A stretch of 60,113 nt of DNA, counting the filler, from Dugesia japonica (taxonomy: Eukaryota): the NCBI GenBank assembly GCA_001938525.1. It is 5 parts of 5 records of this genome, joined end to end, with 100 filler letters (N's around TTAATTAATTAA, not from the genome) between each part and the next. Parts side by side here need not be neighbours in the genome. Positions count along the whole stretch, not along the records: positions 47,676 to 60,113 come from MQRL01551160.1; 4 more parts are not named here. One strand, written 5' to 3'. The position numbers and the translations under genes were made by a program. Positions 1 through 60,113 of this stretch are shown one piece after another. The notes under the pieces were generated by a model, which did not search any database, was not told where the DNA came from, and saw only the letters and a program-made list of their open reading frames with translations. Within the stretch, counting starts at the first letter, position 1. The number at the start of each line of letters is the position of its first letter.

Positions 1-2184
1 GCAATAATAATAATTTTAATAATATTTATCTTACAAAAATTCAATATACCTCTGAAATATTAATTTAACTTTCTCTTTTCCTTTATTAAATACAAGTNNN
101 NTTTCTTAACTCCGTTTTCTTCTTCCGAATTAATAATATTTAACTAAAATAATAATAAAATTATTTCTAATTATTCAAATACTTTTATTATAATAATATA
201 AAGGTTTATATCGACATTGCAATAATTTTCATACTGTTCTTACTATAATAATAATACTAATTTACGTCTTAACTATTTTCCCGTAAACTCGTTCGACTTT
301 AATAAAATCTTTTACTATAACTTGCTTTTCTTTTAATCTTACTTTACGAAATAATTTTTTTATTATATTTTAACTATCTTTTTTATATATTTATACTCCT
401 ATAACATAAATATAATTATAAATAATAATATATCACACTCTAATTTCGCTTTCGTTCGTTATTTCTCCTTTANNNNNNNNNNNNNNNNNNNNNNNNNNNN
501 NNNNNNNNNNNNNNNNNNNNNNCTCTAATTTCGCTTTCGTTCGTTATTTCTCCTTTATCATTTCTTGACATTATTCATACACTTCATTTTTAATTTGCTT
601 TTTATTTCATGAGCCATAATTTATTAAATGATTTTCTTTTATTACGGAATATATTATTGGAGCCTTCGTACTTTAATTCTGTAATTATTATTTCTTTTGA
701 GCATTTTATCGTTGATTATTATTTCCTTGGATCATTTTATCGTTGATTAATATTTATTTTCTGCCTTTCTTATTCTGGTATTAAATATTCGTTCATTTAT
801 TGAATTATTATTCTCTTTCTTTCGTTTCTTCATTTATTATTTCGCCTTATTTCTTTATCTCTGAGTTTGTCATTTGAACACTTTTTGTGAACATTATCTT
901 CTTGAGCACTTCCATTTATTACTTTTTCTTTATAATGGAATAAAATACCTTCGAATTATTTTGTAACTTCTAACAATAAATGGAATAAAATAATAATAAA
1001 TTCCAATTTATATTGATCGAAAAATTGATCGAACGTGTCTCTCTATCGGAACACCCAATCGTTCGGATTTCGGGACGACACAATAACAAAAATTCCAACC
1101 GACGGATCGACACGATCCGAAAAATAACAACAAAAAATAATAATAACAATAATAACGGGATCGAATTGAGCCGATTAAAATTATGGTTTGTGTATTCCAT
1201 AATTCTTATGATTAAATCTGATTTATGCCATATTCCAAACCTTGACTTTCTGATGAGTTAGGTTCATTCTTTTCTTCTATTATCATTTCTATTTAGTTCT
1301 CGGTTTCTTATAAATTCAATTCAATTTTNATTTAATCTATCATTATGAGGAAGTTGTCACTTTATTTATTCTTTATTGTCGTGGTTAATATTCCTATTTA
1401 TTTTATTACTTCAGTAGCATTGTCTCCTCTTTTCACTAGTTCACTTTAAATATTCATGTTATCAAATGGCCTGTTTCAGTTCAGCATAAGTACAAAATTA
1501 ATGCTAAACCCAAAATTAATACTAAGAGTTGGGGTGAAACACCGGGTACCGAAAATAAAAATGGCGACAAGTAGACTGGAAATTAAAAATTGTCGTCAGA
1601 AAAGAAAGCGAAGCATTCAGATCTAAGAAGAATATAGTTCAGGGAAAGAAGGAAATAATTTAAAGGAAAACCGAGATTGGTAGTTAAAATTAACGAAATA
1701 ATCAACAAAACCCAAAATTTACAACAAGAAACCACTCAGAAAAGAACAGACCAAAGAAGTAATAGAAGTTGTAGCAGGACAAAGAAAGATAATAAAATAA
1801 CCATTATTTCGTTGGGCAAAATCATGAAAATGGAATTAATACTGTAAGAACGAAATATTAATTAAATTAATTAAATGAAGAAAACTGTGAAATTAAATTA
1901 AAACCAAACCAAGGAACAAAGAAATGAATACTTAATTAAGATGCACCAAGAAAATAAAATAAATTATTTATTTATTTAAATAAAATAATTCAAAAGAATT
2001 TAAAATAAATTATTTTTACAAGAAAAATAATTATTTCATGAAAAATGGCAAAAACAACGACTTTCCCTGGTGAGAAAATTAGCAATTAAAAAGATTCTGG
2101 TCAAGGAAAAATCGGATATTTTATAAATCTAAGTTAAAATATCGATAGGAGTCTCAGAAAAAAGGATACAGGGGTTTGAAGGTT

Positions 2185-2352
2185 GACCAATAGATTCAAA
2201 GTCCAATAATATCAACCAATAAAAAGAGCTCACATGACGTTCCAGCCAATGGAAACGTCAAGAAAGTCGTACGATTCCAAATAACCAATGAAAGGAATGG
2301 GGGTGTGAATAGAAAGCGGTATAAATACCGAAATATTCTTGTTATTCAATCA
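2185..2352 (+). promoter_or_regulatory. Compact Pol II promoter-like module (CCAAT array + CRE-like half-sites + TATA)
   Basis: CCAAT at 2187, 2203, 2216, 2246 and 2285; TGACGT (2235) and ACGTCA (2255) inverted around the 2246 CCAAT; TATAAATA at 2320; ATG at 2384 opens a decayed frame. Motif evidence only. Confidence 0.45.
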
Positions 2353-3530
2353 CAGATGCAACGATTTCCGACTTGAACCGAAAATGGAAAATTATTGTGG
2401 ATCCATTTAATCAGTAATATCTATCAAGGAAATGATAATTCAAATCTCGTGCTTGCTCCGGATCGGGATCCAGACCACGTTAGTTTTATTATTTGTCCTA
2501 TTAGTTAAATTAATGTATAACAAATGGTGATTTGATAATTGAATATATTTTTCCACTTGTTACAATCTTGCGTTCTTGATAATTTTAAATCATAGAGTAT
2601 GAAGTGTTAAACTAAACGTAGTAATTAACTGAACCTAGCTAAATATGTTTAATTCTGAAAACGAAAATTTATAATTAATTAAGACTCAAATGACTGATAA
2701 AGTCAAAATCCATTAAAACAGGTGTTAAACGGAAATCTAATAAATTGATGATTAATAAGTAGGATTTAAATCAGGCGAGTATCATGTTAAACGAACCCGA
2801 ACCAAAGGGGTGCGAGTTTGTACTCGAGTTACGAGTCAACGGCTTCATCCAGAAGATCTGGATGCGTAGAATTATATTAAACATTAGTAAAAGCTTAAAT
2901 AAGTTTAAACTCACCAATGGGGTAATTAGTACCTTATTAATAATCATTGTTTAATATTACATTGGGTATTCCATTGATGACCATTAATTACTAGGGATTA
3001 TGAATAAATTAATTAAAATAAAATCCACACAAAACATTACTATAATATAATTGAAGTATCTAGAGTATTCCAAAAACCCCACTAGTTAATCATTCGCAGG
3101 AATAACTTGAATCTCGATACGATGAAAAAAAACAAAAATGTTTAGAAAGAAAACAAAATCTTTATATAAAACTATTTGATATTATTATTCAAGAAATATA
3201 AATTCAACATATTTTTAAGAAATATATAAATTACTACGTCTTTATGGTTGAAAGCGGTTTAAATGTGAGGAAACAATTACCTTAATCATTAATAAATATA
3301 GCCAATAAATTTTTATTATCATATCACTAAACACTTTACTAATCGGAAACAATATAAATTAATTTAAATTGAAGAAAATATTCATAATAACAATAAACCA
3401 TAATTAATACAATTTTTAAAAAATGCATTTAAAATAGTATTAAAATGGTATTGATTTTTAGAAATTTTCCAATAAATTATACTAAATCGATTGGATAAAT
3501 ATTAAAATTATTTTAAATAAAATTAAAGGC

Positions 3531-3893
3531 CGAATTTCTTCGCTGATACAATCAAAAAATTTTTTGGTCCTAATGAGGACCGTTATTCGTGCTCGAGATT
3601 TCTTCTTGTAATGCTTAAATGGCAGCATGACCCAGTAATTCTTCTAGGAATAACCATAAATGTTGCGTGGCTAATTATTTCAGTGCTGAATAAAATTAAA
3701 CCAGGTAAAAATTTGTACAATGTTTTTAAAAAAAAAATACAAACCATCTTCATCTACGATATCTGCCGTTTCTTTCAGAATTGGCAATTTTGTATCGATG
3801 ACGAAAAACTCAGAAAGAGTTTTCTAAATCATTAATTTTCATATCATTTTGTTTTGTTTATCAGACTTACCCAAATGTTTCTTTGGAATCTAT
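3531..3893 (-). pseudogene. Spliced pseudogene fragment, unknown protein (3 exons)
   Basis: Exons 3893-3871 (runs out of an N gap), 3823-3745 and 3685-~3530, with GT..AG introns of 47 and 59 bp in compatible phases. They give RFQRNIW/KTLSEFFVIDTKLPILKETADIVDED/ALK*LATQHLWLFLEELLGHAAI*..., with stops in the last exon. Confidence 0.4.
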
Positions 3894-4169
3894 NNNNNNN
3901 NNNNNNNNNNNNNNNNNNNNNNNNNNNNNNNNNNNNNNNNNNNNNNNNNNNNNNNNNNNNNNNNNNNNNNNNNNNNNNNNNNNNNNNNNNNNNNNNNNNN
4001 NNNNNNNNNNNNNNNNNNNNNNNNNNNNNNNNNNNNNNNNNNNNNNNNNNNNNNNNNNNNNNNNNNNNNNNNNNNNNNNNNNNNNNNNNNNNNNTTTCTT
4101 AATTATTATAGCTAAAAAATTGAAAATTGTTGTTGTGACGTATTAAGTAAAATATTATAAGTAATAGGA

Positions 4170-24369: not shown

Positions 24370-25035
24370 GTGTAAATAAGAAATATATTTTGAGTTTCAT
24401 GATGTCCGTTATTTCTGATGTAACTAACATAAATGTATAAAGTTAAAAATTATAATATAAAATAATACTGTCTAACTTGTTTTCGTGCGATTTTTTATGC
24501 GGTTCATGAAATTGCATAAACAGACGGCACAAATCAGGTTTGAGTGCAATTAGAAATGACTATATTGACAAATAATAGCAATTGAAGAAGTACTTTGTTT
24601 TTGATTTTGACAATTTGATCTAACCGGACAAAACGCAAACATTATTATATTATATTAATTTTGTGTTAAATCAGTTTGAAACTCTTACTTTATTTTGTGA
24701 AGGAACCAATTAAAAATCAAATATAATATCTATTTATTCTAACAAGAAAGTTTATAATAAAATCTATTTTATTTTAATAAATTTTATATATCAAAATTTT
24801 AATAATTGAAACATTATTATTTAAATTTAATTTTTAATGTCTTTTGTTTTTCTAAATATCCGTTTTCTAAATTAAACTTTTTATAATTTGAAATATGAAA
24901 TATTAATCTATTTTTAGATGCTGATTATGTAATTTGTTATTTTATCAGAACTAATTTTTTATTACTTTGTAAGTTATATTTTTTATTTATTTTAAAAATA
25001 AAATAGTTCATTGAATTTTTTCTTCTAGATAAAAG

Positions 25036-28000
25036 ATGAACAGTATTTTTCTTAGCCAGTTACGCTTACTATTATGGAAAAATTTTCTTTTGAGGAAACG
25101 AAAACCACTTTCATTGATATTAGAATTATTAATACCACTCTTTATTGTTTTTATTCTATTGGCGGTTCGAAATGTTCAAAAGAAATACAAAATGGATCTT
25201 TGTGAATTAAGAGAAAAACAAATGCCTTCTTTGGGACCAATTCCATTTTTAAGAGATTTTTTATGTACTTTTAACACTACGTGTTATAACAAAACTCAAA
25301 TCGATTGGTCAGGTAACAGTACCGACCAATTCCAAACGTTTATAATGAATATTACCATATTGTATAATACGTTTCCTAAACCTAATCCAACGATTTTTGA
25401 TATATTCAATTGGTCCAGACAAGAAAATGATAGATTACAAGGCAGCATGAATTACTTTTCCAACTCGACATCACCTTTACTTGAAGCTATGAATCAAATT
25501 CAATCGGGAAATCAAACTGAAGTGAATAAAGGAATGAATACTTTACAAGCATCAATCTGTGGCTCAAGTGAAAATGACATGGGTATGTTTTTGTCGTATG
25601 CAATGCCTAGTACGAGATCGAAAAGATCAATCGCCACATGTAAAAATCAATTGTATTCGTCGATGGGTAAAAATACATTCGGTCGTCAGTTTTACGCTGT
25701 TATTGCTCCGTTGATTTTCGGGAAAATCTATTACACTCCAGATACCGATTTCACCCGGGAATTAATCAAAAGATCAAATACAACATTTAAAACCTTAGAC
25801 GCTTTACGATTGACAGCAGTTGAATGGCGTTTGCATTTCAGTTCTTGGTTTGTTAACAATATGAATAACAGCGGTACAATCAATAATTTACGAAATTTTT
25901 GTAAATTAAATATTCCACAATCGACTGAATTTTGTAGAATCGTTAATTCCACTTTCGATATGAAAACAATTCTCGCATTTAATGCTACAGCGTCGGTTAT
26001 TTTTTCACTAATCGAGAACCTATTGAATTGTACAGAGCTGGATAAATTCGTACCAATGAAATCATCGATCGATATCGATAATTTAGCCAGTCAATCACTG
26101 CTTGACGTATTTGCTGGATTGGTAATCAATGAAACATTTCAATATCTCACCTACAAAAATGCTACTTTCTTGAAATATCAAATTCGAATGCCAACCAATC
26201 GAATCGATACAACGAAAAACTTTAAAACTGTNNNNNNNNNNNNNNNNNNNNNNNNNNNNNNNNNNNNNNNNNNNNNNNNNNNNNNNNNNNNNNNNNNNNN
26301 NNNNNNNNNNNNNNNNNNNNNNNNNNATGCTTTCATAGAAATGGTTACGAATAACGATTCGGTAACTGTCGGTTCCAGTATGCAAATTATGCCTTATCCG
26401 TGTTATGTCAACGATAAATTCATTAGATTTCTCGCGAGCATGATGCCGTTTCTTCTAATAATTGCATGGGCGCCTTCAGTGACAGTTCTCATTAAGAACA
26501 TTGTGTATGAGAAAGAGAACCGTCTGAAAGAATTCATGAGAGTTATGGGATTGTCGAATTTAGTTCATTGGGTCGGTTGGTTTATAACCACATTAGTTAT
26601 ATTGCTCTGCCCAATTATTGCCATGGCATTGATTCTCAAATATAGTACGATATTGGCTTTTTCGTCGGCGTGGGTGGTTTTTTTCGTTCTTCTTTCCTAT
26701 GTTATTTCTTTCATTTGTCAATCTTTTATGATCAGCGTTTTCTTTGATAAAGCCAATGTAGCATCTGTGACTGGGGGAATAATCTACTTTGTTTCCTATT
26801 TACCGTTTCTAGTATTCACCAATTTACCGGATGATGTAACCGATTCAATGTATTACGGAATCGGACTGTTGACTCAAGTAACGTTTTGCAATGCGATAAA
26901 TTTCATTGCTTTCTGGGAACAGTCAACTGAGGGGTTACAGTTTTCCAATTTATTTGAAAGTACCGTAGTAAATTTGAATGTTGGTGTTGGGCATTGTATG
27001 GTAATGATGTGGGTCGATAGCGTTATTTACTTACTAATAGCTTGGTATGTAGAAGCAGTGTTTCCCGGTCAATTTGGAGTTGCTAAGCCGTGTTATTTTC
27101 TGTTTACTCGTCACTACTGGTTTCCTAATAATAAATGTTCCGGTGATATCGAAATATCACCATTTGAAAACTATGCTTTCGATACATCGGCTAACGATAT
27201 TTTAATAGAACGTGGTTTTGAACCGGAACCAACAGATTTAAAAGTGGGTATATCAATTAAAAACCTTGTGAAAACTTACCCGGGTGCCAAAACCAAAGCA
27301 GTTGATAATTTAAATCTGAATTTCTATCAGTCGCAAATCACAGCATTTCTCGGTCATAATGGCGCAGGAAAAACCACTACGATTTCGATATTAACCGGAA
27401 TATTTTCTCCCTCATCAGGAACTGCTTACATTTTAAATGAAGACATTCGAATGGATATGGAAGGTATCAGACAGAAAATGGGTTTATGTCCTCAACATAA
27501 TATTCTATTCGATAATCTCACTGTGGAAGATCATATCTACTTTTATGGATTACTGAAAGGAATGAAAATTGAGGATATCAAAGAGATCTTGCCGAAAATC
27601 GTTGAAGATGTTGGTCTTACAAAGAAAATTCATTCTTCTTCCAAAAGTCTTTCCGGGGGAATGAAACGAAAATTAAGTGTGGCGATGGCATTTATTGGAA
27701 ATTCACGGGTTGTATTTCTAGACGAACCAACTGCAGGTGTCGATCCATTTGCTAGAAGAGGAATTTGGGATTTATTAATAAAATATCGCAGTGATGATCG
27801 GACAATCATTTTAACAACTCATCACATGGATGAAGCGGATTATCTCAGTGATAGAATAGCGATAATCTCTCAAGGAAAATTACAATGTTGTGGTTCGTCT
27901 GTATTTCTGAAAAAGGAATATGGAGATGGTTATTATTTGAATTTAGTTAAAAATCCAAATATCCAAGAAGAAGAGATCGAAAATGGTATTTCAAAAGATG

Positions 28001-31000
28001 GTGTGAAAGTATTGAAGTTCATAAATTCTCATATATCTGATGCAAAAATGATAGAAGAAACTAGATCACAATGGACAATTGTTTTACCACAAAATGATAA
28101 CAATAACAGAAAATTTTCTCAACTCTTTGCCGATCTTGACGAAACAATGTTTACATTGAATATTGCTTCATATGGACTATCGGATATTTCTCTCGAAGAG
28201 GTTTTCTTAAAAGTAGCCGATGATCCATCAGGTGCGGTTGAAGAAATCAAAAAGAAACAAGTTACACTTGAAAATTTAGACTCTCTAACAGATAACGGTG
28301 ATTTACCAAGACCTGCATCTAGATTAAGTTTAAGAAATAAATATGACCACTCTAAGATCGATAATTTGTCATCAATTCCGTTTCAGTCCAATATTGGTTA
28401 TAATCTACTTAAAGGGGCTCCTTTACTTCGTCAGCAATTGCTGGGATTGCAAATAAAACGATTTCATTACACGAAAAGAAANNNNAAAGGATTTATAGCT
28501 GAATTAATCTTGCCTATTGTGCTAATTATCATAATGATAGCTTTCGCTAAAATTTCATCCTCGGTTACGTACCAACCATCAATGGAAATAAGTCCCTGGT
28601 TAATGATGCCGAAAGCACGATCAATCAATTTGAACACATTTTATCGCAAAGAAAACATTTCCAATAATTTGATTGATAGATTGGAGCAATATTATCGATC
28701 AGACCTTGGTGAAGCCGGTATAAGATGTATGAATCAGTCAGTTTATAAAATGGACAATTATCAATGTGACTACACAAATAAAGAATGGTCTTCTTCTCCG
28801 AAAAACGTATCATTATCCAGCCCCGAATGCGATTGTAACAAAACGGGATATCAAATATGTTCGAATAACCTTAGTGGCGGTCCTGAAAACTCTTACCGAT
28901 TAATGGCCTCTACTGATAAGCTGAATAATTTAACGGGATATAATATTTCAGATCATTTATTGAAAAAGTTTAAAGTGTATATTAGAAAGCAATATGGTGG
29001 TTTTCAGGTTTTACTGCCCAGTAATTTCGGTCAATCATCAAAATTGATTGGCCAATCTCCAATTTGGAATGGAATACGTTACTCAGCGAATTCATCGGAT
29101 GAGGTTAAATTTGCTGACTATTTTCAAGAGTTTTTTAATTTATCTGGGACGAAAACTAATTTCAGTCGTATATGGATTAATTCAAAAGGCTATGCTTCAT
29201 TGCCAGCTTATACAAATATATTCACAAATCTTTTGTTGAGGTCTCGAATAAATTCAACTGAAAATGCTTCAAATTATGGAATTTCTGTGTCGAATTTCCC
29301 TTTAAAGTATACCCAAGCTGAATTACTCAGTCAATTAAACAGTCAAATGTTTATAGAAGTATCGTTAGCTATTTTTGTAATATTTGGATTATCTTTCATT
29401 CCGGCAAGTTTTGTAATTTTTTTAATTGAAGAACGAATTAGCGGTTCAAAACGTCAGCAATATGTTTCTGGTGTTAATCCTTATGTTTATTGGATGTCTA
29501 ATTTCTTTTGGGATATTCTAAAATATATTATTCCGATTTTTCTTGTTGTGCTTATTTTTGTAGCTTTTGATTATCAATCTTATATTGGTAGCAAGAATAT
29601 TGGCGCATTCATAACGTTACTTATTTTCTATGGACTGGCTATTATTCCTCATATGTATCCATTCAGTTTTTTCATGTCTACTCCAAGTACTGCATTTGTG
29701 GTACTTGATGCCTATAATTTATTGGTGGGATCCATTACCACAATTTCAACATTTTTCCTAGATATTCTACAGCAAGATGATGACACTTTGGTGCCAGTGA
29801 ATAAAATTTTGAAAAAGGTTTTTCTTTTATTTCCTCAATATGATCTTGGCAGAGGAATGATGGATCTATCTTTTAACTATTTAAAGTATAATGTAAGTGG
29901 GGGACAAACAGATTACGATCCTTTCGCATGGGATACTACCGGTGAAAAATTATGTTCTCTTATAATATTATTTGTTTGCTGGTGGATAATTTTGGTCATA
30001 ATTGAGAGTGGAGTGATAAATAGAGCTTTGTGTGGGAAATTGAAAAATCTCAAATTAAAAATCAATGAAATACGATTGAATGAAGATGCAGACGTTTCTG
30101 CTGAAAGAAATCGGATGAGTTCTGATAAAGTAAACGATGACGTCTTAAAGGTTATAAATTTGACAAAAGTTTACAATCCATCACTGAATCTAAAAAATAA
30201 GTGCTGCAAAAAAGTAATTGATGATGCGATCTCTACAGAAAAAAGAAAACTTGCAGTTAATAATCTTTGTTTTGGTGTTAAAGAAGGAGAATGTTTTGGA
30301 TTACTTGGTGTAAATGGAGCTGGTAAAACAACTACTTTTAAAATGTTGACCGGTGAAGAAAATATAACGCACGGCAACGCTTTTATTAATAGTTGTTCCA
30401 TAATAAATGATATGATTGGTGCTCACAGGAATATGGGATTTTGTCCACAATTCGATGCTTTACATTCTCTANTAACCTGTGAAGAACAATTATACTTTTA
30501 TTGTCGTATTCGAGGAATTGAATCATCTCAAATCAAATCCACTGTGGAATTAAGTTTAAAAAATCTTAGTCTCATTCCTCATACAGAAAAAATGACTCAA
30601 TCTCTTTCCGGTGGAAACAAACGTAAATTGTCAACTGCAATTGCTTTGATTGGTTTTCCGAAAGTGATATTTTTAGATGAACCAACAAGCGGTATGGATG
30701 CNNNNNNNNNNNNNNNNNNNNNNNNNNNNNNNNNNNNNNNNNNNNNNNNNNGGTGCTCGACGATTTCTTTGGAATATTATCCAGAAAATGACTACTGAAA
30801 ATAAAATCGCTGTTATTTTGACTTCACATAATATGGAAGAGTGTGAAGTTCTTTGTCATAGATTATCGATAATGGTTAATGGAGAAATGAAATGTTTAGG
30901 AAGTGTTCAACATTTAAAATCAAAATTCGGTGATGATTATTTTGTTACAATTAGAATGTTTCCAAATAAATGCCAAACCAATGAAAAATTAAAAATTAAG

Positions 31001-31318
31001 TCAATAATAGAAAATAATTTTTCTTCTGGTGTTTTACTTGCAAGTGAAAATTTTATAACACTTCAATATCGATTTGATGTTTCATTGTCTAAATTATCAG
31101 TGGTTTTTGATTTTTTTGAAAAGTTGAAAACTGATGATTTAATTGCTGATTTTTCTATTTCTCAGATTACTTTAGATGAGATCTTTATAAGTTTCGCAAA
31201 GGAAAGTGATGCATTTCATAAAACTGATTCTGAATTATCTAATATAAATTCTCGTGCTTTTACGAGAAATCATTTTTTTAACGCCAAAAAATCTCGAAAT
31301 TTAGAAGTATATACTTAA
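25036..31318 (+). CDS. ABCA-subfamily full transporter (ABCA1/4/7-like), ~2,080 aa, single coding exon
   Basis: N-terminus QLRLLLWKNFLLRKR; MPYPCY; IVYEKENRLKE. NBD1: GHNGAGKTT, LSGGMKRKL, FLDEPTAGVDP. NBD2: GVNGAGKTT, LSGGNKRKL, FLDEPTSGMD. ORFs 25036-30798 and 30677-31318 join as GMDA-GARRFLW across the N gap at 30702-30751, so the frame change is most likely a gap-size artefact. Confidence 0.96.
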
Positions 31319-34695: not shown

Positions 34696-35690
34696 TTATA
34701 TAAATAACAAGATAACAACCTTTTCAATAATAATATTTTTGAATATTCCTACATTCCATTTATCTACCACAAAACAATTTTTATTTCTAATTATGTTCAA
34801 TAATCGTTGATCGTTTTTAATCTTCAAAGTATTTAAGGCTCTTGTTAATCGCTCTCCTTTCTTAAAAAATATTAAAAATGTAATTTTCAACTTTTTCATC
34901 CATTTTTCTATCAATTTTTTCTACAAGCTGGTATCCAAAAATTTTCTGTGTATCTATTCCTCCAATCATATATGGTGTTACTCTTTCAGCAACTAAGAAA
35001 GTAATCTCTTTGCAAACTTCATCAATTTTCACTCTTGTTCTAACGTTCCCAACAATTTCAAGTATACTATTATTTGTACAACGCAATTTTTCATCACTCA
35101 TTTCTAACTGTAGTTCTTGTAATTTATTAAAATAACTCAAACTCATAACATTAATTCGAGCCCCTATATCTAATAGACACTTGACTTTATTTCCTTGAAT
35201 TGATACCATAACACTTGGTCTGTCTTGCAATTGATGGTACAAAATATTTGTTTTCTGTTCTGCTTCAATTGTTCCAACCCATTCTTCTTTTCTATCATCC
35301 GCATAATTTTCCTTCTTTAAGAACCTGTATACTTTTACTGTAACGTTTTCACTAACATCCTATTTTAAACTCATGAGGATAATCACTCACTTAATGTAAC
35401 AATGGATGGCCCCAACTAATTCTTCTACTGGTGGAAACCTGCCATTTGGGTACTGCCTTTCGGAATCACTTTCATATACTTCCTCATATCCATCGTTTGT
35501 ATTGACATCTTCATCTTCAATCGCATGTACTCGATTATATCGGTTTCTTGATCTTTTTGCCGACATAAATTTTTCACTTGTTCTTTTCGTTTTCAAATTT
35601 GTGTAACACTCTTCTGTCTTTTGTCTACCATTTCTACATCGTTTTCATCTCACTTCTTAACATAACCTTTGAAATCTGATAGACTATGTC
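34696..35690 (-). mobile_element. Ty3/Gypsy gag-protease fragment
   Basis: Aspartic protease VSIQGNKVKCLLDIGARINVMS ... MIGGID (34862 ORF), with gag-like acidic/basic sequence upstream. Confidence 0.75.
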
Positions 35691-35699
35691 ATGAATTCA

Positions 35700-37135
35700 G
35701 TACTAAGTAAAGATAAAATAAAGAAAGTGAAAAAATACAAGGCTGATATAAAAATTGACAACACACCCTAATATCAAGATCACAGAAATGAGATCCCTAC
35801 CGAAGATTTACGAGGACAAGGAACATTATCAACGAATCGCCGAAAAGGAAGATATCTGTACGATACAAAAAATGTAGTGAAACCGTACATAAATAAAGTA
35901 GAAGAGAATAGACAGAAAATACATGTAAATAATTTGCCAGTAAAAAGAGTATATAAGAGGAACACGCAACCAATGGTGATGAACGATATTACACAGTATC
36001 GATGAAATATTTGGCAATGTGTTATTTTAATAGACCGAAGATTTCCAGAATCTTGTGGGGGGACAGTGTTATTGCTGCAGAGAACATGGGCATGAACGAC
36101 ACCAATGCTCGTTAAAAGGCAAATGTTAAATTTAGATCTTTTGCGATTTTACAGGGTTTGTCTAGTAGAAGGAATTCTAAAATTGTGTTTTCAAGAGGAA
36201 TTAGACGATTCAAAAGAAGACGTCGAGAGCGTGACAGATCATGATATAGTAATGGAAGAAAACCGGAATGACTGCATTGCTTATATTTCGTTGATGGAGT
36301 CAGTATATAAAAAAATAAAATAAATCAAAATTATGATGAAAGAGAAGAAATGTTTGAAAAAGAAGATGGGCGAGAGTGGAGTATAGTAGATGTTAATAGA
36401 GAAAAGTTAGAGATGTTGTGGGATTCAGGAGCTTCAAAGCCATGAAAGAAAATTATTGGATTAAAATTGGAAAACCGTTGTTGTTGATGCGCAATATCAG
36501 ATCAAATGGAGCGTTTAATAAGGACGGAGAAAAACAGTTGGGTATATCAGAATTAAGTATACAGGAGAACAAGAAAATAAGAAAAATTAAAGTCATCATA
36601 GTTAGACAGATTCATCCCAAATTAATAGACGGTAATGATACAATGAAATGTTTTGTAGGGAAATTAACTGAAATAATTAACCTCAAAAATGAAAGTCTGA
36701 AGAAAACACATTTTGATGAAGATAGAAAAAATAATGAGTTGAAGTTGTTTAAAGAAATTGATTACAGAAAAATGGTTCAGTTGATCCAGAATTTTGGTGA
36801 GATATTCATAGCTTCAAATTTCGATATTGGACATACGAGAAAAGTAACACATGAAATAAAGTTAAAAGAGATCAAATAGTACAGCACCATAAAAGACAGT
36901 CAATGCATTTAGAAAAGAAAATTGAAGATATGATTAAAGAATTAGCAAAGATTAGTTTGATCAGCAAGTGTAATAGTCCTTGAATTTCTTCATTAGTGAT
37001 TCTGAGTGTAAGGACGACTCGATAAAAATGTGCGTGGATAAAATACAAGTGAATTTGAGGTCAGAAAAATTGTTTTTTCTAATGCCAGACATTCAGTTAT
37101 TATTAGATTGTTTATCTGGTTCAAAAAAGTTAATG
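35700..37135 (+). mobile_element. Ty3/Gypsy gag-protease-RT start, decayed
   Basis: Zinc knuckle CYCCREHGHERHQC (~36067), protease MLWDSGAS (~36413), FDIGHT..VTHEIKL, and RT start KDDSIKMCVD..MPDIQLLLDCLSGSK. Confidence 0.78.
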
Positions 37136-37368: not shown

Positions 37369-37699
37369 ATATTACCAGATTCCCCTTGACCTCCAGTCAA
37401 ACCCGGAGAACCCTAAATAATTAAAAATGAAATATCTTAAAATAAACTAACTTTTTCACCCTGAAAACCAAATTCTCCTTTAGCTCCTTTAATACCCTGA
37501 TAAAATTCATAAATTACAAATATAACGAACAGTAGAATTACTCTATTTCCAGGAAGTCCTTCTAAACCTTTTTCTCCATCACTTCCATTTCTACCATCAA
37601 CTCCCTTTAAATAAATAAATTCATAATATTTAATAAATATTATACTGGAATCCCAATAATTCCTTGTTGACCTTTACTTCCAGTTTCTCCTTTTGAACC
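37369..37699 (-). CDS. Collagen (Gly-X-Y), downstream exon group
   Basis: Phase-0 exons 37699-37646 (54 bp, GSKGETGSKGQQGIIGIP), 37604-37542 (63 bp, GVDGRNGSDGEKGLEGLPGNR), 37496-37452 (45 bp, GIKGAKGEFGFQGEK) and 37412-37369 (GSPGLTGGQGESGN, runs into the gap). GT-AG introns of 39-45 bp. Confidence 0.92.
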
Positions 37700-37927
37700 C
37701 TAAGAAAGTAAAGGTTATAAAAAAATAAATATAAAAAAANNNNNNNNNNNNNNNNNNNNNNNNNNNNNNNNNNNNNNNNNNNNNNNNNNNNNNNNNNNNN
37801 NNNNNNNNNNNNNNNNNNNNNNNNNNNNNNNNNNNNNNNNNNNNNNNNNNNNNNNNNNNNNNNNNNNNNNNNNNNNNNNNNNNNNNNNNNNNNNNNNNNN
37901 NNNNNNNNNNNNNNNNNNNNNNNNNNN

Positions 37928-38234: not shown

Positions 38235-38419
38235 AGTAGTCGGGAAAATGCGACTTTAACGGAAGCACGTAACTATAAACGCAGGCAAAGTGCATAAATG
38301 ATAATACACAAATTCAAGAGTTGTGTTTTTAGGGATTATATTTGTTAATTTGGTGTGCGGATGCCGTCGCACATTATAGCGCTAATTAGTTGCATTAAAG
38401 TCGCATTTTCCCTACTACT
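38235..38419 (+). repeat. Polinton left TIR (185-bp unit with an internal inverted terminus)
   Basis: Starts AGTAGTCGGGAAAATGCGACTTTAA and ends TTAAAGTCGCATTTTCCCTACTACT; inverted match to 45595-45779. Confidence 0.93.
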
Positions 38420-38487
38420 CGTTATTTGTTACTTATCTTTTAATCTTTGAATTTTGAAAAATATAATAAAATTTTTAATCAATAAAA

Positions 38488-56166: not shown

Positions 56167-57369
56167 TTTAAATGTTACGTAATTTGAAAAATGTATTTCT
56201 TTTAAAATATTTCTGTTAAAATTTATTCATTTAAACAACATTTAAACTTTGAATGTCCTAACGTTTAATATTCTGATAAATATTTTAATAATTTCAATTA
56301 AATAAAATAATTATTGGGTACTCGATGAACAAGCGTATTTCTTTTTGAAAACGTAGCTAATAAAATCGGAAATTGAATAAAAGTTAAATTGAAATTTGTT
56401 ATTTTTAAACCGATGATTAATAATAATAATAATTTTAAAAATAAATAAACTTTGTTTATAGTATATAATAAATAGTAAATTAGAAATAAAGAAAAAATAA
56501 TGCATTATAAAAGTACAAATTCATAAAAAATAAATAAACGAAAAAATAAGAAAAACAAATTTAAATCAGCATGAAAAATTAATTTATTATAGCTAGTGGA
56601 TACGAAATTGAAAAAAAACGGATAAACAACGTATTGAGAATTAATGTAAATATTGTAAATTACATAAATCAAGAATAATATTTCAACTACAAATAAACAA
56701 CTGAAGTATTGAGATTCCTAATTATTTTTTGCATTGACAGAAAATATAAATTATAAATAATTAAAGGTTAAGTAAACATAAAAAATATTTGTAGCAAAAA
56801 TTATATTTTCTTTTAAAAAATAAAGGAAAAGAAAACAGATAGAAATATCTCTTACTTTTCAATCTTAATTTTATTAATTTTATTTGTGAATTATTATTCG
56901 AAAATTAATTAAAATTAAAAAAATATTAAAATTACAATTTTTTATTAAAACACAAAAAATTTATACAAAGATTTATTTAAATCAAGGACAAATATATGTA
57001 TTACTACTCATATTCTGTCTTCGTTTATCGCATTTCAGATTCTACAGTGTTGTCTATTGTTCGTCTTAAGTAGGTAGATAGGAGCGCACTGCCTCAATAA
57101 CCCCCTGTGCGCGGATTATATGTGTGCATGTGATTATGTAATAGTTTTGTATAGATTTTACGTGTATTTAGCGGTACGATTAAAATAGATAAGATGTGTG
57201 CACGTGATTACGCAATTGCGGTTTAAGATTTTTACATGGTTTTAGCGGGAAAGATTTGATTACGTAACTTTTGCTCGTATTTTTAGTGTGAACCTAGTTC
57301 AATCTTTTTTAAATGATTTTATTTTATTTATTTGCATTTAATTTTTGCAGGGAATAATAATAATAATAA

Positions 57370-58475
57370 TTGTGGAATTGATGATGGAAAGGTAAAGCAC
57401 TTGCTCAATAAAGCAAATAATGACGGACAGGCATCATATTGATGTGTCAAAGAGTGACATTGAAAAAAGTTTCTATAAATATAATACCAAAGTAATGTAT
57501 GTGGATCGGAAACGCAGTGGAAGACCACCGAATTTATCAATACGGTCACATAGATTTATTTGACGTGAATGCCTGAAAAATAGAAGCATGTCGTTAACGG
57601 AAATAGCACTTACTTCTGACATGGGTAGCATTTAACATGTGTCTAGATGCACAGTTTACNGTATTCTTAATAAGTACGTATTAAGAAGTTATCCGGCTGT
57701 TAGCAAGCCGTTAGTCAATGATAACCAAAGGAAAAGAAGATTGCAATGAGTGATATCTAAACAGCAATTTGATGTTGATAAATGGGCACTTGTTGTCTTC
57801 AGAGATGAATCAATGTTTCGCACATATAATCATGGTCGCTCCCAAAGAATTAGACGATTTAAATATGAAAGATTAAGTCCTATTTGTACTAAGAAGGTTA
57901 TTCAATATGGTGCGCACATCCATGTTTTGGGATGTTTTTCACGATTTGGTGTAGGAATTTTGAAACGAATACAGGGTACGTTGAATTTTGCAAGCTGTCA
58001 AAACAAGATTGTCAATGACATTTACCTAGTTGGCAAGTGCTTGGTCTTCCCTCTGCGTAGGTTCATATTGCAGCATTACAATGCTCCTTGCATCAACATT
58101 ATCTTTTCTCAGTGAACGTCAAATCGATATATTAAATTGGCTGGCAAATTCTTCTGATGCGAATCTAATCGAACATTTGTGGCTTTTCATAAAGATCAAA
58201 ATAAATGCTTTTGGAACTCTGAATGCTGATGAAATGTGGGCGGAGTTACAAAAGATATGGTATAATATACCCACTTCCTTATGTCGCCAACTCGTTGATT
58301 CCATGCCACGAAGAGTGTCCACTATTATCCAGTCGAAAAGATACCCAACAAAATAAATATAAACTTATTATCGTTTGTAAATATAATGTTTCTTTCTTTT
58401 CCATTGGCTTTTCAAACGAATTTTCTGTAATTTTTGTGATTTACATGAGTGCAAACAGACTTTTGAAATTGACTG
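57370..58475 (+). mobile_element. Tc1 (DD34E) transposon, decayed
   Basis: RKRSGRP, AVSKPLV, VVFRDES, ILQHYNAPC, WLANSSDANLIEHLW, LVDSMPRRV..YPTK; right end ...TTTTGAAATTGACTG + TA. Confidence 0.88.
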
Positions 58476-58876
58476 TATANNNNNNNNNNNNNNNNNNNNN
58501 NNNNNNNNNNNNNNNNNNNNNNNNNNNNNATCCAGTCGAAAAGATACCCAACAAAATAAATATAAACTTATTATCGTTTGTAAATATAATGTTTCTTTCT
58601 TTTTCATTGGCTTTTCAAACGAATTTTCTGTAATTTTTGTGATTTACATGAGTGCCAACAAACTTTTGAAATTGACTGTATATATGATTGTAGTTGATTG
58701 AAACATGAATATTAGTCATAAAGACATTCAAAAAATTCAACTAGCAACTAATTGTTTCTTCCATTTTGCTTATCAGCTGTGCGATATATATGGCGATGTT
58801 AACATCAATCTAACATTTCATTTAAAATATGACTATGAATTNNNNNNNNNNNNNNNNNNNAAAGCTATTCGATTGA

Positions 58877-60113
58877 ATGAGAAACAATGAAATAAATTCA
58901 AATACCAAGAAATGTGGACCCCAATCTATCTTGGTTACGATATATAGCTCTGAAAGTTATCCGAGAACTATAGAAGCCAATAATAGTGTGAACGATAGCG
59001 CGGAGTTTATTTATGCAACACCAGTCGGTCCTGACAAGAAATGGTACCGAAATTTCAGGATATATTATTATGAAAATTTTTATTATTATTATTTATCAAT
59101 TTCAGATTTAGTGTGCCTAGCGCTCAATGGTCTCAGAAACGTAAATTATTGATGGAATATCTTGGTCACAAAGGAAAATTTGCAATAGGTCAGAAAGAGG
59201 AATCATTTGAAGGATTTCGACATGTTCAATGCTTCATCACATTGAACAATTCGACTACCTGAATGGCAGTGTAAAGCAAATTACAGCTAAACTGTGTCAA
59301 AGGCACAGAAAATGATTCAATTCAAAGTGATTATTGCACGAAAATCAACACTCGTATTGAAAATGGTATTCCATTAAAATGGGGTAGTAGACGCGAAGTC
59401 GAAACCATGTCTTTATTGACAATAGTTTTGAATTTCAAAAACATTGAGCAAGGCAAGAAGCTTATTGAAGAAGAGAAACCATTTGAGGTTATTAAACTTC
59501 ATGAAAAATTACAAAATACGTTAGTACAGAAACTTCGAAAGTATAATAAAAATTGGGTAGATGAATTTTTCAATTTTGACGATAGGCGAACTAAAGTATT
59601 TAGTGGACCTACAGGTAAATAATATTTTTCTTTTTTATACAAATAATAATAATGTTTTAGGAATTGGAAAAACAAATTTTGCTCTGTCTCACTTCCAGTT
59701 TCGTTTGCATGTCACAATTCGAAAAGATTTTATCAAGTTAGGATCTAATAAATTCAAATGTGATGGAGTGATCGTAGTTGATGTAAATCTATCCAAATGG
59801 GATCCAAAAGAGGTTATAAACTTATATGAAACAGCGTATGATACCTCTATCAACGTAAAGTATAGCACAGGAATAATNNNNNNNNNNNNNNNNNNNNNNN
59901 NNNNNNNNNNNNNNNNNNNNNNNNNNNNNNNNNNNNNNNNNNNNNNNNNNNNNNNNNNNNNNNTTGAAAGAAGATGTCACTTCATCTTATTTGATGGCAA
60001 CCTTCTTTATAGACCAGAAATCGTTGATACAGAGAACCGGCTACCGAAAGTTAGTTACGTACAAAATCATTCAACAATAACAACAAATGAATTCAAGGTT
60101 AATGAATTTAATT
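58877..60113 (+). mobile_element. Endogenous CRESS-DNA-virus-like Rep (HUH endonuclease + SF3 helicase), spliced, with 2 stops; runs off the window end
   Basis: Splicing 59059-59105 and 59615-59660 gives RNFR/FSV (motif I-like), GQKEESFEGFRHVQCFI (motif II), DYCTK (motif III), GPTG/IGKT (Walker A), DGVIVVDV (Walker B), INVKYSTG (motif B') and, after the gap, ERRCHFI (Arg finger). Confidence 0.85.

Follow-up and report, generated by a model that had tools for sequence, protein, structure and literature searches.

A decayed Rep locus of the PEVE lineage in Dugesia japonica with two predicted short introns

PEVE is a virus-like planarian element that is described as extrachromosomal. Its large segment (L001) is 5,699 nt long with 243-nt inverted ends, and its annotated Rep has 272 aa and starts after motif I. 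Spliced Reps occur in mastreviruses and genomoviruses, and known spliced CRESS Reps usually have one intron. Intron-split CRESS Reps as such are known (PMC6186406), and CRESS Reps nick single-stranded origin DNA and unwind it with a ring-shaped SF3 helicase (PMC10288648). PIVE_3p of Schmidtea is an integrated relative that the Liu 2011 supplement lists beside the PEVE large-segment Reps; an integrated member of the PEVE/PIVE lineage is therefore already known.

The window is a 60,113-nt stretch of Dugesia japonica DNA (GCA_001938525.1; five parts of five records joined end to end, filler included). It is AT-rich animal DNA with collagen exons, an ABCA gene, and Polinton-like and Tc1 remnants, and at 58877-60113 it contains Rep motifs spread over three reading-frame pieces, all on the plus strand, whose exons have a GC content of 33-37%. 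Exon A (58877-59058), within an ORF at 58877-59152, encodes an N-terminal extension and the first half of motif I (KWYRNF); its WYRNF aligns with the family's RYRNFR, weakly when taken alone (E 0.03). A longer extension from 58705 had been proposed, which lies in a different frame and finds no support. Exon B (59106-59614) encodes the rest of motif I, a helical oligomerisation region, and the start of Walker A. It includes HUH motif II (RHVQCF, 59218-59235) and motif III (YCTK, 59332-59343), with one catalytic Tyr. Exon C (59661-60113) contains the end of Walker A, a degenerate Walker B (59768-59782), the B′ Tyr (59861), and the Arg finger (59969); a run of 86 Ns covers SF3 motif C. The exon C piece is 58% identical to the relative P0015 and its tail matches the metagenome locus L011 weakly; the window ends inside this tail, which is open as originally described.

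The assignment to the CRESS-type HUH and SF3 Reps is supported by profile matches, motif spacings, and the fold of a relative. A profile of ten relatives, with the window left out, matches 59092-59628 (iE 1.5e-41; profile positions 6-194) and, in the next frame and colinear with the first match, 59660-60028 (iE 2.5e-22; positions 188-306). Because the relatives were collected with the N-terminal half of the window Rep only, the second match serves as an independent check. After removal of the predicted introns, the distance from motif I to GQ.E is 30 aa (30 in four of six relatives, 29 and 32 in the others), that from G to K in Walker A is 6 (6/6 relatives), and that from the B′ Tyr to the Arg finger is 36 (5/5). 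The Pfam Viral_Rep profile, suggested as a check, falls short of its cut-off on the window (E 0.02). On the relatives, Viral_Rep gives 2e-4 to 6e-4 for two of the ten matches and 5e-16 for P0009.

Intron 2 (59615-59660, plus strand) is a 46-nt phase 1 GT..AG segment of 11% GC within Walker A (GPT-X-IGKT). As a predicted intron it is well supported, and the proposal that its removal rebuilds Walker A agrees with the GT..AG ends, the two-frame profile match, and the 6-residue spacing. Its donor scores 150.5 bits as against 133.8 for the next donor, the segment is kept in a diverged contig, and the protein of the relative P0006 stops at this site. Across the window, GT..AG 46-mers occur at 112 of 57,329 positions. 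Across the two introns, the other donors at 59044 and 59603 and the acceptor at 59111 score 9.5-17 bits lower and were rejected.

Intron 1 (59059-59105, plus strand) is a likely 47-nt phase 2 intron of 11% GC with a GA donor and an AG acceptor, located in motif I (YRNF-X-FSVP), and its support is weaker than that of intron 2. Removing it scores 151.4 bits as against 150.2 for reading the downstream frame, a margin of 1.2 bits that leaves out the junction residue, scored as X. An alternative is that intron 2 is real while 59059-59105 arose as an AT-rich insertion of 39 nt, which duplicated 8 nt of its target and shifted the frame after the death of the gene. GA stands in place of GT, an 8-nt repeat flanks the segment at both ends, none of the relatives is split by an intron here, and the nearest GT (59044) used with the same acceptor yields a stop; these features and the small margin speak for an insertion. 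The size, GC content, and TTTCAG end resemble host and family introns, however, the 8-nt repeat equals the acceptor consensus, and the segment is kept in a second contig at 88% identity. An insertion is considered improbable. The original reading of 59059-59105 as an intron draws support from its size, composition, and the 30-aa spacing and is weakened by the donor, the repeat, and the margin.

The short length of both predicted introns had also been said to match host collagen introns of 39-47 bp, which holds roughly, as the collagen introns in the window read about 37, 40, 41, 45, and 98 nt. The relatives P0003, P0008, P0011, and P0015 are continuous at both window intron sites, so the sites are lineage-specific. 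Continuous homologues had been put forward as evidence against splicing; they exist at both sites but do not refute it, because their genes have, or may have, introns at other positions.

The window Rep copy is a pseudogene and cannot make Rep, since two in-frame stops (59260-59262 and 59272-59274) lie between motifs II and III and one of the two acidic residues that the family has in Walker B is missing. The original prediction of an open frame after intron removal overlooked these stops. Its motif order stands for II, III, B′, and the Arg finger, and its Walker B is present in degenerate form. In sequencing run X1, one diverged contig spells the first stop differently, though still as a stop, two diverged contigs have no stop at the second site, and three other contigs have six extra bases just before motif III.

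Nine of 24 listed sequencing runs hold part of the stretch, with one species label throughout, and reads from four of the 24 were mapped. In the DNA run X1, some contigs are near-identical to the window, whereas others represent at least 2-3 variants that are 88-92% identical to it; up to six contigs lie over one place, and some diverged contigs keep introns 1 and 2. Rep copy number is low, with several diverged copies. Seven DNA-type runs from three studies hold 0.28-0.70 of the Rep words, and one of them may be the source. These data bear on a further reading, in which an assembly gap wrongly connects host DNA with a Rep that belongs to a contaminant or to a free (episomal) element. It draws on the N-runs just upstream, on a Tc1 end duplicated across one of them, and on the extrachromosomal state described for PEVE. 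It is very improbable, as the stops and the decay are in line with a fossil in the chromosome, the Rep words recur across the DNA-type runs, and the X1 contig depth is low and even.

Junction reads across either intron, proposed as a check, are absent from the four mapped runs, in which the exons are almost unread in RNA, and no RNA run is listed as a holder of Rep words. Exon reads are nearly absent from the RNA runs X10 and X11, of which about 6% and 25% were read, and at most three X11 reads lie over the unspliced end of intron 2. RNA reads on the AT-rich introns were rejected as partial matches from elsewhere (82/82 in X10 and 80/81 in X11). Run X8, whose RNA type is guessed, gives one 205-nt contig at depth 2, and the small shares in X8 and X9 are no evidence. 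A missing transcript is expected of a dead copy, and the splicing of the window Rep is predicted from its DNA.

The 5′ side of the Rep element is cut off from view by the decayed remains of a Tc1/mariner transposase with its right end (57396-58479, plus strand), of which 58030-58353 matches the Sleeping Beauty transposase (E 2.7e-08) and 58460-58477 holds the end motif. A 98% copy of 58327-58479 lies across a 50-N gap at 58530-58682 (plus strand) and is probably an assembly duplication. Just upstream of the Tc1 remnant, 57114-57248 contains two 61-nt copies that are 72% alike and 74 nt apart. The PEVE ORFs other than Rep, among which a capsid gene had been sought, have no tblastn match in the window, where the Rep flanks are cut by Tc1 on the 5′ side and by the window end on the 3′ side. 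Neither inverted ends nor divergent ORFs are seen in 56500-60113, where the Rep element is truncated in view. The nonanucleotide stem-loop, another suggested check, has no match to nonanucleotide origin patterns in 57001-60113, with the element ends outside the view.

Other parts of the window contain host genes and mobile elements. Collagen (Gly-X-Y) exons lie on the minus strand at 37450-37700 and 46900-47320, with introns of 37-45 nt and one of 98 nt. A decayed Polinton/adintovirus-like region at 38400-45550 includes fragments of an integrase (rve, E 1e-4), an A32-like ATPase (E 6e-3), and a protein-primed DNA polymerase B (E 9e-4); it lies between the two collagen exon groups, possibly inside the gene. 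An ABCA-type transporter of about 2,100 codons at 25033-31318 (plus strand) has closest matches of 63-75% and is apparently intronless, in contrast to the collagen gene with its many short introns in the same genome. Fragments at 34862-36879, judged by eye, resemble the aspartic protease and the RT start of an LTR retrotransposon.

The window Rep belongs to the PEVE large-segment/PIVE lineage, as judged by sequence similarity. A search with its N-terminal half among 1.84 billion protein representatives gave ten matches at E<=0.001, of which the best named is the PEVE Rep (P0003, E 7.9e-15), and a second search brought in six more, of which four are CRESS Reps of a more ordinary type. Identity is 38% to the PEVE Rep over 261 columns, 39-42% to the metagenome loci L010-L013, and 15-24% to ordinary CRESS Reps. 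The phylogeny called for originally, a quick IQ-TREE tree of 30 rows (L017, with no usable ORF, left out; L006 a long, unsure row), places the window with PEVE in an unresolved 12-row group (SH-aLRT 93); a branch with support 100 sets off the ordinary CRESS Reps. By path, the nearest row to the window is P0006, a short sequence. The description of the family as possibly undescribed was too strong, as the lineage is that of planarian PEVE/PIVE and PIVE_3p is in print.

The fold of the family is also of the CRESS type. A model of P0015 (pLDDT 69) matches the Rep structures of vientovirus (redondovirus), duck circovirus, and PCV2 (E 3e-6 to 9e-4), including circovirus nuclease domains. The best BFVD match for the family, first among the viral models, is the PEVE Rep (E 6.5e-20), and the Atlas look-alikes are Cressdnaviricota Reps (0.97). 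A word-based search with the window N-terminal half for longer proteins gave 0/253 candidates, viral-contig scans with P0015, P0023, and P0008 found no relative, and those with P0003 and P0025 found PEVE itself only. Distant Reps or short matches account for 8 of the 9 viral loci and 14 of the 18 metagenome loci from alignment A5, and these were set aside.

The PEVE Rep gene has two predicted, unannotated introns, whose removal would supply motif I together with a long N-terminal arm. An upstream frame in L001 encodes a motif-I-like RNFQLSIP, and removal of a 56-nt GT..AG segment at 4028-4083 restores the 30-residue spacing. A second GT..AG segment, of 48 nt at 3542-3589, links this frame to an ATG at 3248. 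The arm of the spliced Rep would then be about 230 residues long, comparable to the P0002 arm, and the database PEVE Rep is probably only the last exon of a gene at L001 3248-4944 (plus strand). A 265-codon ORF at L001 3252-4049 overlaps the PEVE Rep in another frame.

The unnamed PEVE ORF1L (L001 207-1040, minus strand) has top Atlas look-alikes in ssDNA-virus jelly-roll capsid clusters (0.95), a call based on Atlas features only with 5/10 family agreement and mixed families; its single-sequence fold has a pLDDT of 31. This capsid-like ORF, as evidence from a single source, favours a virus nature of the PEVE lineage.

The four remaining metagenome loci, L010-L013, come from one data set and are close relatives, with Reps that are related and differently damaged. 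All four have a phase 2 GT..AG segment just before motif I; L010 and L012 have another after the Arg finger in common, and a further one, near residue 273, is common to L011 and L013. The ends and phase of these segments are constant and their length varies (36 vs 80 nt), while pS is near saturation (0.71 and 0.78) and pN is 0.16 and 0.13, a pattern expected of working introns under selection. Intron sites seen in DNA fall at about 5, 10, 27, 187, 273, and 290 in P0015 numbering, and odd protein ends point to three further sites (P0002 near 177, P0023 near 40, and P0006 at the window's Walker A site). PEVE-lineage Reps thus appear to carry short AT-rich GT-AG introns at many shifting sites. 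Such introns seem to belong to the virus lineage in general and not to be an adaptation special to this copy, since they are predicted in free PEVE as well. No description of introns in PEVE or PIVE Reps was found in the openly accessible literature, although the 2002 PEVE papers or a Repbase entry may mention them. The word "intron" occurs 0 times in the main text of Liu 2011, and part of its supplement mentions none.

L010 contains a Rep-only spliced cassette of roughly 1.9 kb (about 1715-3650) with no capsid gene, located inside a Ulp1-protease-bearing non-LTR retrotransposon that lacks the RT core. The cassette presumably replaces several hundred bases of the retrotransposon, by our estimate from RT motifs, and at its 3′ end a 109-nt repeat occurs 3.1 times, together with (TA)11. 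This locus makes it conceivable that the window holds a dead copy of a capsid-less rolling-circle transposon, derived from a PEVE-like virus, encoding only a spliced HUH and SF3 Rep, and spreading in animal genomes. The several diverged copies in X1, the four damaged Reps in one metagenome, and the combination of many host-type introns with long N-terminal arms, which is usual for eukaryotic transposases, also fit a transposon. Set against it, the L010 cassette, without a start in frame, resembles a truncated fragment, and the capsid-like gene of PEVE lies on the 5′ side, which is the side missing in L010 and in the window. PEVE ORFs other than Rep have no tblastn match in L010, and a shared end motif of L010 and PEVE is at chance level (358 of 1000 shuffles score as well). 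Copy number is low, and the introns are predicted in free PEVE too. L010 decides for neither a truncated virus nor a transposon, because the start and the capsid-gene side are missing, and a transposon is unlikely overall. A broader proposal, that the PEVE lineage keeps gaining and losing host-type introns and that part of it has lost the capsid and moves in animal genomes as a rolling-circle transposon with Rep and SF3 only, which would make a third kind of eukaryotic HUH transposon next to Helitrons and Replitrons, is slightly more doubtful.

The window Rep is probably a fossil, low in copy number, of a PEVE-like virus whose CRESS-type Rep was spliced; of the two origins first offered, ssDNA virus fossil or transposon, the fossil is the better option, and we infer a viral origin for this copy. 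In the live element, the host spliceosome would cut out several AT-rich introns of 35-80 nt. The resulting single Rep protein would combine an extended N-terminal arm with an HUH domain for nicking (Tyr of YCxK), a region for oligomerisation, and a helicase of the SF3 class. Introns of host size would follow from transcription in the host nucleus. By analogy with known CRESS Reps, the spliced product would nick the element's ssDNA origin with the motif III Tyr, unwind it with the SF3 helicase, and copy the element. With PEVE-like inverted ends, replication may be hairpin-primed as in parvoviruses. A fragment would then have integrated in the germ line in few copies and decayed, leaving the stops, the degenerate Walker B, and the non-canonical donor.

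The window copy itself would be the dead remnant of a lineage that is known but has received little attention. Introns at many places in the Rep would be unusual for such small viruses and would give a compact system for intron gain in a small DNA virus. Very short, shifting introns would cause gene callers to report truncated Reps, such as the PEVE Rep without motif I, and Pfam to miss them; this would explain why so few relatives are known. The pairing of a CRESS-type Rep with inverted-repeat ends makes such elements interesting for the CRESS-to-parvovirus transition, and capsid-less copies, if they move on their own, would form a new transposon class. Several predicted short introns at shifting sites and the predicted unannotated PEVE introns appear to be new, while intron-split CRESS Reps and the integrated PIVE_3p were known.

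The closest known system is PEVE, which has the same motifs and spacings as the window Rep, together with predicted short introns and an N-terminal arm. Its predicted intron sites, at about residue 27 and one upstream, differ from those of the window at 10 and 187 (P0015 numbering), and PEVE is intact with inverted ends and other ORFs, whereas the window copy is broken and neither is seen. PIVE_3p, compared by description only, is likewise an integrated PEVE-type Rep in an animal genome. Circo-, redondo-, and crucivirus-like CRESS Reps have the same Y1 HUH, oligomerisation region, and SF3 helicase. They are 15-24% identical to the window Rep, and the window lineage has at least five core intron sites seen in DNA and three putative ones. 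PEVE, the nearest whole relative, has inverted ends, unlike circular CRESS genomes.

Helitrons and Replitrons are eukaryotic HUH elements with introns in their genes, a layout they share with the window Rep. Replitrons encode a Rep without a helicase, with two introns in Replitron-1, and Helitrons encode a Y2 Rep fused to an SF1B helicase (PMC10288648). The window Rep differs from Replitrons in having helicase motifs and from Helitrons, to which neither Pfam nor fold searches gave a match, in the number of Tyr residues and the helicase class. Its single YxxK and SF3-type motifs agree with the original view that it is neither a Helitron nor a Replitron.
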